NCBI GenBank assembly: GCA_018970425.1
Contig: JAGWWK010000002.1
Location: forward strand, 7,891 to 71,890
From: Patescibacteria group bacterium
Lineage (GTDB): Bacteria; Patescibacteriota; Minisyncoccia; Phycocordibacterales; Phycocordibacteraceae
Reading direction: 5' to 3'
Length of the DNA: 64,000 bases
Part shown: positions 1 to 41,540 of the stretch, piece after piece
Layout: each line of letters starts with the position of its first letter
Position numbering within the stretch: the stretch's first letter is position 1
Made by a program: the position numbers and the translations under genes
The notes under the pieces: model-generated
What the model was told of the DNA's origin: nothing
The model's database searches: none
The model's input: the letters and a program-made list of their open reading frames with translations, nothing else

Positions 1-63
1 TTCACACGACGAGGCACGGGTAACCGCTCCGGCATTCGAATCTCTGCCCCTACTCGCACCACA

Positions 64-1672: not shown

Positions 1673-3454
1673 CTCCTCGATGAAGCCGCCGGCTTGGTGC
1701 GCCCAGAGTCGAGCGTAGCACCCACCCTCCTTCGTCACGAGCACGTCATGCGTACCGTCTTCTACTATCGTACCGCCTTCCATGACGATGATGCGATCCA
1801 TCTCCTTTATCGTCGAGAGTCGGTGCGCGATAGCGATCACAGTCTTCCCTTGCATCAAGGTGTGGAGTGCCTTTTGTATCTCAGCCTCACTTTCAGAGTC
1901 GAGACTCGAGGTCGCCTCGTCGAGGATGAGTATCGGCGCCGCCTTCAGTATCGCGCGAGCGATAGCGATGCGCTGGCGCTGTCCTCCCGAGAGCTTTACG
2001 CCACGCTCACCCACCTCGGTGTCGTAGCCTTTCTCGAGTGCAGAGATAAACTCGTGTGCCTCAGCCTTCTTCGCTGCTTCGACCACCTCTTCGTGCGTGG
2101 CGTCGGGCTTTCCGTACGCAATGTTCTCGCGGATCGTGCGGTGAAAGAGTGCTGGGTCCTGTGGCACGACCGCGATGTGCTCGCGGAGTGAGTCCTGAGT
2201 CACCTCAGCGATATTCTGTCCTCCGAGCGTAATAGCGCCACCCTGTATGTCGTACTGGCGCAAGAGTATCGACACCAGCGTCGTTTTACCCGAGCCTGAC
2301 GGACCGACGAGTCCGACGCGCTCACCCTCTTTGAACGTGAGGTTAAAGTGCTCGAACACGTTTTTGTTTCCGTACGCGAAGGTCACGTCAGAGAGGACGA
2401 TGTCGCCGCCGCCCACGAGCGCCTTGGCACCCGGCGCGTCGACGACCGTGTGCGCTTCGAGTATCTGATCGAGTCCTTCTTTCGTCGTGCCGTACGACTC
2501 TGCGAAGTGGTTAATGTTCATACCGATGTACGAGAACCACCCGAGTATCCCGTTAATCACCGTAATAGACATGATGAACTGTCCTATCGTGAGATGTCCT
2601 TGGTCCCAGAGGTAGTATCCTGCTGCGACCATGCTGAGCGTAAAGAAGCCGAGGAGAATGTTATTTAACAAGAGGAGGAGCTCTGAGTAAAATCCGTTTT
2701 TCCACGTCGCGATGCGCAAGAGCTCACTCTGCTCAGCAACGAAGGCAACTTCTTTCTTGCGATTTGCAAAGTTAATGACCGAAAACATGTTCGACACGAT
2801 GTCGACCACGTAGCCCGAGAGTCGTGAGCGCAGTTCTTCGCGCTCTTTAGCGTACACCGAGGTGTACTTCGAGAGCTGGTAGTTTGTGATGACGAGCACC
2901 ACCATCCACACCGCGAAGAGGCCGGTGAGGACTGGGCTCGCAGTATAGAGGAGTCCAGCCGAGGCCACGAACGCGAGCGCGGTGTTTATAAAGTTCCACA
3001 CCACTGCGTCGACTAAGTCGCGTGCACCGCCAGAGGCGTTCCAAATTTTATTTGCAGTCGAGCCGGACATGCGGTTTGAGAAGTATGGGATCGAGTGGAG
3101 CGACAGGTGCTCGAAGAGTATCGTCGATGCGTGCGAGCGCATCGCAGACGTCCACGTGAGTGCACTCGCCCCCGACGCGCGGTACAAGAGCTGGTGACCA
3201 ATGAGTGTCACCGGGAGCGCCACCACCCACCAGAAAAACTGTCGGTGCGTCGCAAGCCCGCTACTCAGCGCATGTGCGGTGTCGATGAGCTGCTGGTACA
3301 CGTAGTACGTCGCCGTGTCTACCGACACAGCAATGACCATAAAGAAAATAGTAAGCACACCCCACGCCCAGTAGGGGCGCGAGACGTAGAGCGCAAACCG
3401 TATCGGTGTGCGCGGAACGCGTGTGTGTGCAGCGTGTGTGTGCATATATCGCAC
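1670..3454 (-). CDS. ABC transporter, fused permease and ATPase (MsbA/exporter type)
   Basis: Six-TM N-terminal domain, Walker A GPSGSGKTT, signature LSGGQRQRIAIARA, Walker B ILILDEATS. Confidence 0.9.
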   Translation of the reverse strand: MRYMHTHAAHTRVPRTPIRFALYVSRPYWAWGVLTIFFMVIAVSVDTATYYVYQQLIDTAHALSSGLATHRQFFWWVVALPVTLIGHQLLYRASGASALTWTSAMRSHASTILFEHLSLHSIPYFSNRMSGSTANKIWNASGGARDLVDAVVWNFINTALAFVASAGLLYTASPVLTGLFAVWMVVLVITNYQLSKYTSVYAKEREELRSRLSGYVVDIVSNMFSVINFANRKKEVAFVAEQSELLRIATWKNGFYSELLLLLNNILLGFFTLSMVAAGYYLWDQGHLTIGQFIMSITVINGILGWFSYIGMNINHFAESYGTTKEGLDQILEAHTVVDAPGAKALVGGGDIVLSDVTFAYGNKNVFEHFNLTFKEGERVGLVGPSGSGKTTLVSILLRQYDIQGGAITLGGQNIAEVTQDSLREHIAVVPQDPALFHRTIRENIAYGKPDATHEEVVEAAKKAEAHEFISALEKGYDTEVGERGVKLSGGQRQRIAIARAILKAAPILILDEATSSLDSESEAEIQKALHTLMQGKTVIAIAHRLSTIKEMDRIIVMEGGTIVEDGTHDVLVTKEGGCYARLWAHQAGGFIEE

Positions 3455-8448: not shown

Positions 8449-9183
8449 ATGGATATGTTACCTCTCTTGCCCACAGCGCTCAGCGCGGTGGCACTTGGCT
8501 TTTTCCCCATCATCATTTGGCTTGCCTTTTGGCTCATTGAGGATCGGCGCCACCCGGAACCGCGTCAACGCCTCCTCGTTGCATTTATGGCGGGAATGCT
8601 TTCAGTACCATTTGTACTTGGTGCTCAGGCAGGCGCCTACGCCTTTGTGACCTATGGGACCCTGCTGTTATTCATCTGGGCCACTATCGAGGCGATTGCC
8701 AAAATTTTCTTTGCGTGGTTTTTCGTCCTTCGCGACTCAGCTGTCGATGAGCCGATAGACATTCCAGTCTACCTAATCACTGTTTCCCTGGGTTTTGCAG
8801 CACTTGAAAATACACTCTTCCTCGTACAGCCCCTTATGTATGAAGGATTTGCTATTTCTGCCACAACGGGCGGCTTGCGCTTCATTGGCCCCACGCTCAT
8901 CCACGTCCTCGACGCAGTTATAATCGGCTCAGCGCTTGCTCTTGCGTTCTTCCGCAGTCGCGGAGAGAAAATACTGTACGGCCTCATCGGAATTATCCTC
9001 GCTGCCGCATTGCATGCGACGTTTAACATTCTTATAATAGCTACAGATGCGGAGCAATCGCTCAGTATCTTTCTCGGCGTATGGGTCGCAATTATCTTTG
9101 CACTCCTCATGCTTGAGAGGATTAAACTGTTGCATCCTCCCGCCTGGTGGGAAAAAGTATTTATAAGCTCACGTGATCGCTAA
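8449..9183 (+). CDS. Polytopic membrane protein, possibly a PrsW-like intramembrane protease
   Basis: 7-8 TM helices; motifs resembling the PrsW E..K, F...H and H...N (HATFN) signatures; the assignment is tentative. Confidence 0.4.
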   Translation: MDMLPLLPTALSAVALGFFPIIIWLAFWLIEDRRHPEPRQRLLVAFMAGMLSVPFVLGAQAGAYAFVTYGTLLLFIWATIEAIAKIFFAWFFVLRDSAVDEPIDIPVYLITVSLGFAALENTLFLVQPLMYEGFAISATTGGLRFIGPTLIHVLDAVIIGSALALAFFRSRGEKILYGLIGIILAAALHATFNILIIATDAEQSLSIFLGVWVAIIFALLMLERIKLLHPPAWWEKVFISSRDR

Positions 9184-9187
9184 CCGT

Positions 9188-9652
9188 ATGGCAAAAAAAC
9201 TATCATTCTTCGACCGACTCACCGGCTCGACAGCAGAGGAAGAAGACGCCTTCTCTGAGGAAGAAGCGCGCCATATAACTCCAACGCGCTCGCGAGCTGC
9301 GCCGGCAGAGGTTGAAGACGTTGGTGAGGCACAGCTCACCGTAGACATGTACGAGACTCCGAGCGAAATTGTTGTTAAAGCACTCGTTGCTGGTGTTCGT
9401 CCGGAAGATCTTGATATCTCAATTACACGCGACATGGTCACGATTCGTGGCCGCAGAGTTGAGTCTAAAGAAATTGATGAAGAGTCGTTCGTGTACCGCG
9501 AGTTATTCTGGGGCGCCTTCAGTAGGACTATCGTGCTCCCTGCAGAGGTGGACGTGGACATGGCAGAGGCGGAGCAGAAGCATGGCCTTCTCACAATCCA
9601 CCTGCCCAAGATCAATAAAGATCGACAGACCAAACTCAAGGTTAGAGGCTAG
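9188..9652 (+). CDS. Hsp20/alpha-crystallin small heat-shock protein
   Basis: Alpha-crystallin domain (DMYETPSEIVVKALVAGV...GLLTIHLPK). Confidence 0.85.
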   Translation: MAKKLSFFDRLTGSTAEEEDAFSEEEARHITPTRSRAAPAEVEDVGEAQLTVDMYETPSEIVVKALVAGVRPEDLDISITRDMVTIRGRRVESKEIDEESFVYRELFWGAFSRTIVLPAEVDVDMAEAEQKHGLLTIHLPKINKDRQTKLKVRG

Positions 9653-9745
9653 ATTTCCCCTGAGTTTTAAGATAAAATAGCCACTGTGGCCGAGTACGCA
9701 TCGCGTACTCACGCGTCACGCTGAATACCAGTATTCAGCACATAT

Positions 9746-9819
9746 GCCGGGATAGCTCAGTTAGTTAGAGCATTCGCCTGAAGAGCGAAGGGTCGTCAGT
9801 GCGAATCTGACTCCCGGCA
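9746..9819 (+). tRNA. tRNA-Phe (anticodon GAA)
   Basis: gccgggatagctcagttagttagagc...anticodon loop ctGAAga...ggtcgtcagtgcgaatctgactcccggca. Confidence 0.85.
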
Positions 9820-9913
9820 CCGAGAGAAGAGAGTGAGACGCTTGCGTACTCACTCTTGGACGAGGTGACGGAGTATGTGTCTCATACTCCCGGCACCGAG
9901 AGAAGAGAGTGAG
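9810..9913 (+). repeat. Two exact 28-nt direct repeats (actcccggcaccgagagaagagagtgag at 9810-9837 and 9886-9913). The first includes the last 10 nt of tRNA-Phe; the 48-nt spacer is rich in hairpins
   Basis: Exact repeat read directly; stem-loops gagtgag/ctcactc, ggagtat/atactcc and agagagt/actctct. Confidence 0.85.
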
Positions 9914-9937
9914 GCGCCTTAATGAATTACTCTCTGA

Positions 9938-10237
9938 TTACGGCTGTATGCCGAAGTCTCTTAACAAATCCCAAATTCCGCTGACTTGGCTTTCAATATT
10001 TTTTGCCTCAGACTGGAGCGACGCTCCGGTCTCTTGTACGGCACGGTACTGCGCCTGCGCGGCCGTCAGGTAGGGCTCGAGGTACAACCACGAGACCGCG
10101 GGTACGACAACGAGTAACACGACCCACCACACGAACGTGATAACAGAGTGAATAAATGCGGAACGCCGCTGACTGCGGAGCATTGCATTATTTTCTCGCA
10201 CTAGCTGATACATTTCTTCAAGTTTTCTTTCATCCAT
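9938..10237 (-). CDS. Hypothetical membrane protein (99 aa, one TM)
   Basis: ORF with a TATACT box 6 nt upstream of the ATG; central hydrophobic helix. Confidence 0.5.
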   Translation of the reverse strand: MDERKLEEMYQLVRENNAMLRSQRRSAFIHSVITFVWWVVLLVVVPAVSWLYLEPYLTAAQAQYRAVQETGASLQSEAKNIESQVSGIWDLLRDFGIQP

Positions 10238-10262
10238 GAACGTAGTATAGCCGAAAAAATGG

Positions 10263-10334
10263 TGCCCTCAGCAGGAATTGAACCTACATCTTCTCCTTAG
10301 GACGGAGCTGCTCTATCCGTTGAGCTATGAGGGC
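10263..10334 (-). tRNA. tRNA-Arg (anticodon CCT, tentative)
   Basis: Reverse complement gccctcatagctcaacggatagagc...loop gtCCTaa...gtaggttcaattcctgctgagggca; one mismatch in the anticodon stem. Confidence 0.7.
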
Positions 10335-10395
10335 CTGGGGCCCCGACAAGCGTAGCTTATGAGGGCGTACCTCGATAGTACACCACTCAGGGCGT

Positions 10396-10421
10396 AGCAA
10401 AAACCCCGCGTGAGCGGGGTG
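10396..10421 (-). terminator. Intrinsic terminator downstream of the nrdH-like gene
   Basis: ccccgcgtgagcgggg hairpin followed by a T-run on the minus strand. Confidence 0.6.
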
Positions 10422-10425
10422 TGCG

Positions 10426-10680
10426 CTACTCCTTAATGCCGAGAAGTTCGGCCAGCTTTGGCTTATCAAAGCCAATCACGATGTCGTCGCCAATCCGGAT
10501 TACCGGTACCCCCATCTGGCCAGTGAGGTCAATCATTTCTTGACGCTTCTCGAAGTTAGATGAAACGTCATAGTTTGTGAACGGTATGTTGTGCTTCGTA
10601 AAGTAATCCTTCGACAGTGCGCAAAAGTGGCATGTCGGGGTTGAATAGATGACGACTTCTTTAGGTGTAGAGGTGTCCAT
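10426..10680 (-). CDS. Glutaredoxin-like protein (NrdH/Grx family)
   Basis: CHFC active site in a thioredoxin-fold-sized protein (84 aa). Confidence 0.8.
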   Translation of the reverse strand: MDTSTPKEVVIYSTPTCHFCALSKDYFTKHNIPFTNYDVSSNFEKRQEMIDLTGQMGVPVIRIGDDIVIGFDKPKLAELLGIKE

Positions 10681-10746
10681 GAATATGTGTAATTACTTTG
10701 CTATTATAGCATAGCCGCATACCAGCGTTGCGGTCGGAATATTTGT

Positions 10747-10817
10747 GCAGGATTAGTTTAGTGGCAGAATGACTGCTTCCCAAGCAGTAGGCACGAGTTC
10801 GATTCTCGTATCCTGCA
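10747..10817 (+). tRNA. tRNA-Gly (anticodon CCC)
   Basis: gcaggattagtttagtggcagaatgactgc-ttCCCaa-gcagtaggcacgagttcgattctcgtatcctgca. Confidence 0.8.
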
Positions 10818-10863
10818 CAAATCCTCTGTACCGACTCCTAGGGTCCCACGGCCCAGCTCTCTC

Positions 10864-11238
10864 TTACCAGAAAGGTATGAGTGCGCGGAGGCGTTCCCAT
10901 ACGGTAGCAGGGGCTTCGGGCTCTGGAGCCACGCTGTCGGCCTTAACAAATATAAACTCGACTTCCCCATTTTTGACCCATGGGTAGGTAGAGCGAATGT
11001 GCTCCTCTACCCCTCGCTCAGTTTTGAGCGCAGCAAGCTTATCCTTGAGAACCGCCACTCGCTCAGCAAGCTCGGCACGGGTCGACTCTGCTTCGATTCG
11101 CTCCGCCCGCACCACGCTCAGCGTGCCGAATACGCGATAGGTCGAAATGAGGAGCGCGGACGCAAGGAGGACAAGTACAATAGCGAGCGCCCACATAAGG
11201 ACTCGCTGTACCTGCCGAACAGTCCGCTTTGTCGCCAT
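10864..11238 (-). CDS. Septum-formation initiator family protein (FtsB/DivIC-like)
   Basis: N-terminal TM helix followed by a coiled-coil-like region; TATACT box 9 nt upstream of the ATG at 11238. Confidence 0.5.
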   Translation of the reverse strand: MATKRTVRQVQRVLMWALAIVLVLLASALLISTYRVFGTLSVVRAERIEAESTRAELAERVAVLKDKLAALKTERGVEEHIRSTYPWVKNGEVEFIFVKADSVAPEPEAPATVWERLRALIPFW

Positions 11239-11273
11239 AGCCAAAGTATAGTATGTACTGTATACTCTCATCC

Positions 11274-11381
11274 ATGTTATTCGACAAGAAAACGAAAGGG
11301 ATTATCCGAATATTCTGGATTATCACATCCATCCTCGTGATCGTCTCAATGGTGGCCCTCTCGATCCCGTTCGGCTATTAA
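11274..11381 (+). CDS. Candidate 35-aa hydrophobic micropeptide (MLFDKKTKGIIRIFWIITSILVIVSMVALSIPFGY)
   Basis: ATG ORF with a TATACT box 9 nt upstream; a single TM helix; absent from the >=60-aa ORF track. Confidence 0.3.
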   Translation: MLFDKKTKGIIRIFWIITSILVIVSMVALSIPFGY

Positions 11382-11394
11382 GCGCACCTACACT

Positions 11395-11688
11395 ATGGGT
11401 ATTCAAGACGATGATGCAGAGGCGATTCTCTGGGGAATGTACCGGGTATCAGAAATCGGTAGAAACCTATGTTTTTCTATTCTTATAGGACTCGGTGGGT
11501 ATGGAGCTCTCGATGCACTTGATATCAGTCCTTTTGAATTAGCGTGGACGGACTACACCCTTGGGGGTCTCGTCCTATCTATAGCTACGGTACTTCTGCA
11601 TCAATTTTCAAAAAAGACATATCAAAGCCAGCAAGAAGTAAGTGTCCGATCGATGGACGACCAATACTCTGACTCACAGAAACATTAA
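11395..11688 (+). CDS. Hypothetical membrane protein (97 aa, two TM)
   Basis: ORF with two hydrophobic helices. Confidence 0.4.
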   Translation: MGIQDDDAEAILWGMYRVSEIGRNLCFSILIGLGGYGALDALDISPFELAWTDYTLGGLVLSIATVLLHQFSKKTYQSQQEVSVRSMDDQYSDSQKH

Positions 11689-17433: not shown

Positions 17434-17738
17434 GTGGGCTATGCGTCGGTAAGCCGAATTCTGTTGAGGACGTGAGTCCATGGGCAATCATGTATCTTGT
17501 CCGCATGTTGCCATACGGATCTTTGCGGCACTTCCCATTGCTGGGACACGGCCTTGCACCCTGGTAAGGATTTTGCACGTTTCAGCCGGACTTAACCGGG
17601 TCGTTTCTGTTCGCACCTCTCACCGCGCCCACGCGGTGTGCGGGCGTTACCCGCTACCTTTTTAACCTGCGCACCCTTTCGAGTGCCAAGTGAGTGTTCG
17701 GACTTTCCTCTCTCAAAGAGCGATTGCCTGACGCAGTT
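17434..17738 (-). ncRNA. rnpB: RNase P RNA, bacterial type A
   Basis: The minus-strand transcript carries GAGGAAAGUCCG (P4 5-prime strand), GGGUAACGCCCG, GCAAGGCC and ACAGAAUUCGGCUUA (P4 3-prime strand); P1 pairing GCGUC/GACGC. Confidence 0.85.
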
Positions 17739-17741
17739 CTG

Positions 17742-17768
17742 ATTATATCACAATAAATAACTTGTCAA
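17742..17768 (-). promoter_or_regulatory. Sigma70-like promoter of rnpB (-35 TTGACA, 15-nt spacer, -10 TATAAT)
   Basis: Read on the minus strand immediately upstream of the RNase P RNA 5-prime end. Confidence 0.55.
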
Positions 17769-17770
17769 AA

Positions 17771-17937
17771 GCGGAGGCGGAGAGATTCGCCCGCAACTCG
17801 CGTCCTGCGGGCCGCGGTCTGGGCACCGACTCACTCGCCTACGCTCGCTCCGTCGTTCTCATCTCTCCTTCTCTCGACATCAGTCCTTACCGAGACATGC
17901 TCGGCTCGGACTGCTGTTGCGGAGGCGGAGAGATTCG
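17771..17937 (-). repeat. 19-nt exact direct repeat (gcggaggcggagagattcg) at 17771-17789 and 17919-17937; the second copy is the 3-prime end of tRNA-Ser(GGA)
   Basis: Exact duplicate read directly; the two copies flank a 129-bp insert containing the hairpin ccgagcatgtctcgg. Confidence 0.8.
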
Positions 17938-18004
17938 AACTCTCGGAGGGTTTCCCCTCACACGCTTTCCAAGCGTGCGCACTAGACCGCTATGCGACGC
18001 CTCC
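17920..18004 (-). tRNA. tRNA-Ser (anticodon GGA), long variable arm
   Basis: Reverse complement ggaggcgtcgcatagcggtctagtgcgcacgc-ttGGAaa-gcgtgtgaggggaaaccctccgagagttcgaatctctccgcctccg. Confidence 0.85.
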
Positions 18005-41263: not shown

Positions 41264-41339
41264 GCCGCCTTAGCTCAGTTGGTAGAGCAACTCACTTGTA
41301 ATGAGTAGGTCCCCAGTTCGAATCTGGGAGGCGGCTCCA
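41264..41339 (+). tRNA. tRNA-Thr (anticodon TGT), CCA encoded
   Basis: gccgccttagctcagttggtagagcaactcac-ttTGTaa-tgagtaggtccccagttcgaatctgggaggcggctcca. Confidence 0.85.
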
Positions 41340-41359
41340 GACAAATAAAAATAAAAAAG

Positions 41360-41540
41360 ACCTGATCTACGATCGGCCTTCCCTCGCTCGCTCCGTGTAA
41401 GCAATGCTTGCTCCGTTCACTCTCTCGGAAGACCTGATCTACGATCGGCCTTCCCTCGCTCGCTCCGTGTAAGCAATGCTTGCTCCGTTCACTCTCTCGG
41501 AAGACCTGATCTACGATCGGCCTTCCCTCGCTCGCTCCGG
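41360..41540. repeat. 72-bp tandem repeat, 2.5 copies (unit gacctgatctacgatcggccttccctcgctcgctccgtgtaagcaatgcttgctccgttcactctctcggaa)
   Basis: Exact tandem copies read directly; each unit has an internal hairpin (agcaa tgc ttgct); the last partial unit overlaps the 3-prime end of the minus-strand ORF. Confidence 0.9.

Follow-up and report, generated by a model that had tools for sequence, protein, structure and literature searches.

The duplicated tRNA-Phe tail of a patescibacterial genome as the probable boundaries of an RtT-like trailer unit

Results

The tRNA-Phe gene and the direct repeat behind it

The window, by which we mean the whole 64,000-nt stretch of DNA analysed here (contig JAGWWK010000002.1 of the Patescibacteria group assembly GCA_018970425.1), carries the gene order TsaD, ValRS, PrsW, Hsp20 and tRNA-Phe. 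The tRNA gene faces a convergent gene of a 99-aa membrane protein, beyond which lie tRNA-Arg, glutaredoxin, tRNA-Gly, a gene whose counterpart in relatives is DivIC-like, LepA and MurJ. Database sources label both the Hsp20 and the 99-aa protein as 'Patescibacteria group bacterium'. The tRNA-Phe(GAA) gene occupies positions 9746-9819 of the plus strand according to the Rfam tRNA model (68.1 bits), and ARAGORN calls it as 9746-9821, i.e. together with the CC of the following CCG; the presence of CCG at this place means that CCA is not encoded. The T-loop of this tRNA (9799-9805) reads UGCGAAU. Throughout the clade (all tRNA-Phe loci L006-L023) the loop is either UGCGAAU or UGCAAGU and has a G at the position of the expected U55, the pseudouridine that is near-universal in tRNA T-loops; the T-loop of the sister strain L004 differs from that of the window at two bases.

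An exact 28-nt direct repeat, ACTCCCGGCACCGAGAGAAGAGAGTGAG, had been reported in the initial annotation at 9810-9837 and 9886-9913, and we find both copies there, on the plus strand. The first copy is composed, just as had been proposed, of the last 10 nt of tRNA-Phe, which the Rfam model ends at 9819, and 18 nt of flank; the 10 tRNA nucleotides are 2 nt of the T-stem, the 7-nt acceptor 3' strand and the discriminator A. With one mismatch the repeat stretches to 32 nt (31/32 identical, 9810-9841 versus 9886-9917), and the two copies of the 28-mer are spaced by 76 nt, with 48 nt between them. Copy 1 thus joins the tRNA end to the first part of the trailer, to which the 5' strand of the first trailer hairpin belongs. 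Copy 2, in which the tRNA-Phe tail ACTCCCGGCA(CC) is found again from 9886, is a partial unit that closes an array of 1.4 units.

The 64-kb window holds no third copy of ACTCCCGGCACCGAGAGAAGAGAGTGAG, even when up to three mismatches are permitted (0 in 100 shuffles). The DNA past copy 2 has no detectable similarity to unit 1, as 326 of 1000 shuffles score as high, so a recent and simple duplication in tandem of all 76 nt does not account for the window. Both copies of the 28-mer are present in five independently assembled Logan contigs of the same species, which differ by only two SNPs, both in the spacer; therefore the structure is not an assembly artefact. The 48 nt between the copies hold no gene, no recombinase Pfam family was found within about 8-10 kb of the repeat, where the neighbours are housekeeping genes, and the 18-mer of the trailer had 0 matches among viral contigs.

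Hairpins of the trailer

Three consecutive stem-loops had been proposed for this region, each of them built from a tail of the repeat. Three local hairpins do fold, but the AGAGAGTGAG tail has no part in the middle one, where GGTGACGGAGTATG is paired to the first nucleotides of copy 2, CATACTCCCGGCACC. The proximal hairpin 1 (AGAGTGAGACGC paired to GCGTaCTCACTCT) spans 9829-9857 on the plus strand with a local folding energy of -15.4 kcal/mol and is followed by the linker TGGACG (9858-9863). The GGAC of the linker, which is GAAC in sister strains and relatives, starts the motif GAACG..GNCGGAG, which extends into hairpin 2 and occurs also in longer elements behind other tRNAs. In hairpin 2 (9864-9897, plus strand, -17.8 kcal/mol) the start of copy 2 is paired to GGTGaCGGAGTATG, an inverted and imperfect version of the tRNA tail. 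Hairpin 3 (AGAGAGTGA paired to TTACTCTCT; 9904-9935, plus strand, -12.8 kcal/mol) is made by the tail of copy 2 and adjoins the convergent 99-aa gene (9938-10237, minus strand) at its stop codon.

As a whole, the tRNA-Phe trailer folds far better than shuffled sequences (z = -5.5 to -5.8). In the global minimum-energy fold a nested alternative wins, as either of the two identical tails can take the place of the other. A scan of 9820-9937 for intrinsic terminators returned none, and a search of the Phe trailer against Rfam (E <= 10) gave nothing meaningful. The orthologue in L010 has hairpin 2 followed by GTTTTTATTTT, a U-tract, and thus a canonical intrinsic terminator.

Conservation of the unit at related tRNA-Phe loci

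About fifteen distinct related loci were collected by scans with the 3' half of tRNA-Phe and by look-ups of the neighbouring proteins; their sources are labelled Kaiserbacteria, Paceibacterota and Saccharibacteria. Two loci found through Hsp20 (L017 and L018) had no adjacent tRNA-Phe. In six lineages, namely the window, L003, L016, L006, L010 and L012, the stretch that leads from the discriminator to where copy 2 ends measures 77-78 nt. The two-hairpin consensus of these six is 88.5% paired, compared with 38-53% when the partners are slid against each other, and both sides have changed in a compensatory manner in 13 of 22 pairs, compared with 2-4 when slid, a value reached by 0 of 500 shuffles. 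In the alignment A3 the structure of hairpin 1 is kept across lineages with both sides changed in 8 of its 10 pairs, and the comparison of the window with L016 alone reveals swaps from G:C to C:G and from A:U to C:G. The counterpart of hairpin 2, helix 3 of A3, is 93% paired with both sides changed in 5 pairs. The trailers of L006, L010/L014 and L012 follow the plan of the window: a proximal hairpin, a GAACG or GAGCG linker and a second hairpin, whose 3' strand is CTCTCGGCAC, CCCCGGCG or CCCCGGCACC.

In the nearest relative, L016, whose Hsp20 is 87% identical, the 76-nt unit forms a tandem array of at least 2.4 copies that are 100% identical and run to the end of the contig. We infer that about two perfect units are real, since otherwise an assembly with k=141 could not give the array. 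The 28-mer differs by one base between the two genomes (AGAGAG in the window, AGACAG in L016); the copies agree within each lineage and the partner base in hairpin 1 is compensated, which points to concerted evolution of the copies. The array also bears on the statement of the initial annotation that the repeat is not a CRISPR, with which we agree: the window has two copies only and the would-be spacers of L016 are identical to each other.

The module is missing from more distant relatives. In L023 the tRNA-Phe gene lies about 6 nt from the 99-aa gene, with no module between them, and a second copy of the tail was not found in L007, L008, L011, L013, L019, L020 and L022. Such empty sites stand beside five other lineages that have the module, a pattern that fits an ancient gain followed by losses equally well as insertion.

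These comparisons decide against the initial reading of the repeat as an att-core duplication that marks an integrated element. It is routine to read a direct repeat that starts in a tRNA gene as the boundary of an island, and the start of the repeat in the tRNA 3' end is the classical signature of one; the locus would then be the scar of a genomic island or a prophage, with the tRNA-Phe tail as attL and attR and the island itself deleted down to 48 nt. However, these 48 nt are homologous to those in L006, L010, L012 and L016 and fold into a conserved hairpin, they hold no gene, both flanks are syntenic housekeeping genes, and no matching attP was found in the viral contigs. Orthologous loci carry copy 2 within the conserved hairpin with compensatory changes, which the initial annotation itself had named as a sign of a conserved RNA structure and as evidence against its att reading, and independent deletions would not produce the same pattern with shared internal sequence at several tRNAs. 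Hence we regard an island scar as highly improbable.

Longer elements behind other tRNAs

A script searched the surroundings of every tRNA for its own final 14 nt, with up to two mismatches permitted. Six tRNA loci that are not identical to each other have the tail 14-mer a second time, always on the downstream side at 39-148 nt and in no case upstream: three in the window (Phe, Glu and Ser(GGA)), two Gly loci (L007 and L014) and the Arg locus of L010. The calculated chance expectation is about 1e-3 per tRNA. At four of these loci, namely Glu, Ser(GGA) and both Gly loci, the two tails are separated by a homologous structured element of about 95-115 nt. These longer elements open with the reverse complement of the T-loop and T-stem 3' strand of their own tRNA (GGGGAATCGAAC, GGGAATCGAAC or GGAGAGATGAGAAC), continue with GNCGGAGCG and then with ...GGTGCCCAGAC-hairpin-GTYGNGGGC, and end with a direct copy that consists of GATTC, the T-stem 3' strand and the acceptor 3' strand. 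The four longer elements, taken by themselves, give a three-helix structure in RNAalifold with 9 of 27 pairs compensatory, and their closing stem co-varies with the tRNA to which each element belongs, as both the inverted and the direct copy match it.

The covariance model R1, built from the four longer elements, matches within 118 kb solely in tRNA trailers, including a diverged copy in L010. In the window it marks a full-length element at 238-331 on the minus strand (90.1 bits) after tRNA-Glu (332-406, minus), in which GGGAATC is paired to GATTCCC and which ends with the tRNA-Glu tail copy GATTCCCGGTAGGGTaA. A second full-length element lies at 17771-17865 on the minus strand (91.5 bits) after tRNA-Ser(GGA) (17919-18004, minus), with GGAGAGAT paired to ATCTCTCC and an exact terminal 18-nt copy of the tRNA tail. 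The 5' part of a decayed element (1-44, minus strand, 18.6 bits), cut by the start of the window, follows tRNA-Ser(CGA) (103-190, minus), and its full locus (L025 789-857, 19.1 bits with R1) has neither the distal arm nor the second tail copy. A dispersed repeat of the REP or MITE type is not supported by these searches: the 28-mer occurs just twice in 64 kb with up to three mismatches, and in 118 kb R1 matches nothing besides tRNA trailers.

Orthologous tRNA-Gly genes have the element in L007 and L014 and are without it in the window, L006, L008, L019, L020, L022 and L023; the flank after the second tail copy of L014 matches the flank after tRNA-Gly in the empty L006. The Gly locus of L007 holds one unit and a 42-nt exact duplicate. 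The Phe unit looks like a minimal version of the longer elements, with GAACG..GNCGGAG, a small loop and the tail copy, and this motif acts as the inverted copy in the Phe unit because the acceptor strand of tRNA-Phe happens to match it.

Several observations were made beside these elements. In L010 (586-640) the tail of tRNA-Arg(CCT), TCCCGGTGAGGGCAC, occurs again 39 nt downstream with one mismatch, just before the ATG of the next ORF, and no structured element lies between the tail copies. In L014 (2776-2830) the 5' head of tRNA-Gly (GCGGGATTAGCTCCG...) is present twice, 69 and 35 nt upstream of the gene; copies of the tRNA 5' head upstream were rejected as a general rule, being seen at the tRNA-Gly of L014 only. 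The tRNA-Gly element differs in its 5' half and is identical in its 3' half between L010 (1-150) and L014 (2919-3053), contigs which are otherwise near-identical, and this suggests two tandem units or strain variants. The window also has a perfect 72-nt tandem repeat of 2.5 copies at 41357-41539, 18 nt past tRNA-Thr(TGT) (41264-41339, plus strand). It is without the tRNA-Thr tail and had no match in Rfam; its reverse complement ends in a T-run and has the motifs CCGAGAGAGTGAACGGAGCAAGC and ACGGAGCGAGCGAGG, which resemble motifs of the trailer elements; the repeat may thus belong to a minus-strand transcript. Close to the Ser(GGA) element, a consensus-like TTGACA-17-TATAAT stands at 17745-17773, directly after the second tail copy, and RNase P RNA (class A) lies at 17434-17739 on the minus strand with 78 bits, below the Rfam gathering cut-off of 100, so that a default scan misses it.

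An acceptor-stem-only minihelix (GCCGGGRTAAG...CTT...CCCCGGC) which resembles a collapsed tRNA-Phe was seen upstream of tRNA-Phe in several relatives (L006 6529-6555; L008 5824-5849; L019 about 2421-2447, minus strand; L020 about 1552-1577). One could argue that copy 2 of the window is likewise a decaying duplicate of tRNA-Phe, a tandem gene that has collapsed to a functionless acceptor-stem minihelix. This reading would account for the acceptor-like minihelices upstream of tRNA-Phe in L006, L008, L019 and L020, the 5' strand of hairpin 2, GaCGGAG (GCCGGAG in L006), is like the tRNA 5' acceptor strand GCCGGGA, and the loop AGCAAGGCTTCC is common to the upstream hairpin of L020 and the downstream hairpin 2 of L006. 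However, neutral decay would not hold the length at 77-78 nt or maintain 13 compensatory pairs, nor would 28 nt, of which 18 are fast-evolving trailer, stay identical within a lineage, and the homologous elements behind Glu, Ser and Gly, which are not tRNA-like, would be left without explanation. It is thus improbable that copy 2 is the remnant of a decayed gene.

Search for relatives of the E. coli RtT RNA

The E. coli K-12 tyrTV locus was fetched as a reference after the Ser(GGA) element had given a sub-threshold match to the Rfam RtT family (RF00391). There the last 19 nt of tRNA-Tyr occur again at +178, +356 and +534, so the locus contains 3.1 units (3.14) of 178 nt, and the Rfam structure of RtT is closed by an inverted GGGGAAGGAU paired to a direct AUCCUUCCCC, after which comes the tail ccaCCACCA. 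Of our elements, that of Ser(GGA) aligns with the E. coli RtT above the level of shuffles (z = 5.0, 0 of 300), and no significant alignment with it was obtained for the Phe unit and the remaining elements. The same Ser(GGA) element is the top match of the Rfam RtT model, with 16.5 bits on 17769-17883 against the gathering threshold of 45 bits, and also of an HMM of the E. coli RtT, below significance in each case; the nhmmer E-values of the family are 0.09-1.2. At E <= 10 the Rfam RtT model had no match on 9000-11500 or 1-600, at gathering level the whole window returned only tRNAs and reached the RtT threshold nowhere, and R1 found nothing at E <= 10 on the E. coli tyrTV locus. Since the RtT model stays below 45 bits on every copy, homology to RtT is unproven and the likeness is one of architecture. 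The E. coli RtT unit, when searched against phage and plasmid collections, gave just chromosomal-type copies.

Discussion

Our data suggest, with a probability of roughly 0.6, that the pair of 28-mers bounds a single unit of an RtT-like, co-transcribed, tRNA-distal trailer, which probably has a role in termination or processing. The unit of about 76 nt runs from the acceptor 3' strand of tRNA-Phe via the proximal hairpin to the second hairpin, and the 3' strand of this second hairpin is a new copy of the tRNA tail, paired to its imperfect inverted copy just upstream. The initial annotation had offered, as its alternative, a processing or termination structure built by duplication; this comes close to the reading that the evidence supports. 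A role in termination, protection against exonucleases and processing is suggested by the position of the module between convergent genes, the stability of the hairpins, the covariation and the U-tract of L010.

The module would form a structured 3' trailer on the transcript of the CCA-less tRNA-Phe. Stable as they are, its hairpins may stop or pause RNA polymerase and may block 3' exonucleases, an action that would serve the tRNA transcript and, on the other strand, the convergent 99-aa gene, and the tRNA-Phe would be cut free after A9819. As a tRNA tail is made anew with every unit, the array could expand, contract and be homogenised through unequal recombination or slippage. Recombination or slippage of this kind at the tail copies would explain why the copies are identical inside a lineage and different between lineages, and recombination between tail copies could have led to the array in L016, the one unit in the window and the absence of units in L023. 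The sharp limit of the identity at 28-32 nt fits the duplication of a target or a short conversion tract equally well.

The duplication of a target is the core of another explanation, that of a miniature mobile element, in which a non-autonomous unit inserts into the 3' part of tRNA genes by site-specific recombination and duplicates the tail in the manner of attL and attR. The inverted and direct copies of its stem would mimic a duplex target in a folded single strand, as in the attP of the CTX phage or the attC of integrons, and the repeated use of the regenerated target would build tandem arrays. In this weaker form the att idea of the initial annotation keeps some ground, as the tail is duplicated around a short inserted unit, empty sites exist and arrays consist of n units and a tail, while the island itself has to be given up. 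The arrays do have one extra copy of the tail each (1 + 0.4 in the window, one unit + 42 nt in L007, 3.14 in E. coli), orthologous tRNA-Gly genes are patchily occupied and the flank past the second tail copy of L014 is that of the empty L006, the homologous elements behind Glu, Gly and Ser match their own tRNA with both the inverted and the direct copy, and the identity of the repeat in the window stops sharply.

However, no recombinase, integrase or transposase lies near any copy, and no copy is found away from tRNA trailers in 118 kb. Besides the trailer 18-mer, one motif of the elements also had 0 matches in viral contigs, and the single viral match of another (L027) is due to chance, lies in a phage structural gene and is not recognised by R1. 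The equal length and position of the Phe unit in six diverged lineages fits vertical descent, a circle of 76-140 nt is an implausible substrate for recombination, and the length of the duplicated tail varies (14, 18, 28 and 42 nt). We consider insertion by site-specific recombination less likely than the trailer reading, though a serious rival to it. A still broader proposal, which we hold to be unlikely, is that RtT-like modules are widespread and unrecognised miniature elements that home to the 3' parts of tRNA genes from Patescibacteria to Enterobacteria, and that the 28-mers are the true attL and attR of their 76-nt minimal member. If this were true, each copy would carry an inverted and a direct copy of the T-loop or acceptor segment of its target, a pair that would mimic the duplex target once the single strand has folded, and insertion would regenerate the tRNA and duplicate its tail, with arrays arising through reiteration.

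The findings have several consequences. The rule that takes a direct repeat in a tRNA gene for an island boundary misleads here, for several tRNAs of one genome. The tyrT-distal repeats of E. coli are a curiosity which dates from the 1970s and was never explained, and our data show that the tyrT/RtT design, in which a copied tRNA tail is closed by a stem with its inverted copy and reiterated past the gene, exists in an uncultivated and strongly reduced lineage as well. At least four tRNA species are followed by it there, and the stem co-varies with the tRNA. The E. coli puzzle thereby becomes a comparative problem with many independent instances, which allow one to ask if such modules act in termination or in processing, are released as small RNAs or move as mobile elements. 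In this context the single tRNA-Phe locus is ordinary, and it is the resemblance to RtT across distant phyla that is worth a systematic survey. We also note that the Logan contig L025 ends inside the Ser(GGA) element (at about 17800 of the window) and the MEGAHIT contig L016 inside the Phe array; short-read contigs thus end in tRNA-distal repeats, which break assemblies, and the unit numbers in MAGs may be unreliable.

Comparison with known systems

The closest known counterpart is the RtT repeat of the E. coli tyrT transcript, whose processing frees the RtT RNA (rttR) and in which a Rho-dependent terminator lies inside the repeats. As in RtT, the tRNA-Phe module follows its tRNA gene immediately on the 3' side and in the same orientation; it begins inside the tRNA, at 9810. 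The units of both finish with a repeat of the 3' end of the tRNA that they follow, Phe here and Tyr in E. coli. In both, a direct copy of the tRNA tail is paired to an inverted one upstream of it to give the closing stem, and hairpin 2, which covaries, is the equivalent of this stem of RtT. In E. coli the units stand in tandem and the last, partial unit of the 3.1 is the tail copy alone; reiteration of whole units is perfect in L016, where at least 2.4 units are present, and the window has 1.4 units, with DNA unlike unit 1 behind copy 2. A partial unit may also lie between two tRNA genes of one operon, as does the Glu element here. The differences are that the host is a patescibacterium instead of an enterobacterium, that the Phe unit has 76 nt in place of 178 nt and is without internal arms, that its duplicated tail begins in the acceptor stem whereas that of E. 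coli begins in the T-loop, and that the tRNA-Phe of the window neither encodes CCA nor has a tpr-like ORF. RtT is presumed to take part in tyrT processing and the stringent response (bioRxiv 10.1101/2024.07.17.603846), while its own function is given as unknown in the part of PMC7542023 that cites Bosl and Kersten (1991). Our literature search on tRNA-distal repeats in Patescibacteria found nothing relevant.

The att sites of integrases in tRNA genes share with our loci that direct repeats start inside the 3' part of the tRNA and that the target is regenerated, so that tandem accretion is possible. The repeats of the longer elements even start exactly in the T-loop, which is the classical crossover position of integrases. 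Unlike such sites, the loci described here have no integrase, cargo or attP partner, and what lies between the repeats is a conserved structured unit of 48-100 nt and not foreign genes. Bidirectional terminators are similar in that stable GC-rich hairpins stand between tRNA-Phe and a convergent gene, with a U-tract in L010, whereas the copy in the window is without the U-tract of intrinsic terminators. A plain terminator would give no reason for the copying of a tRNA tail or for its reiteration.
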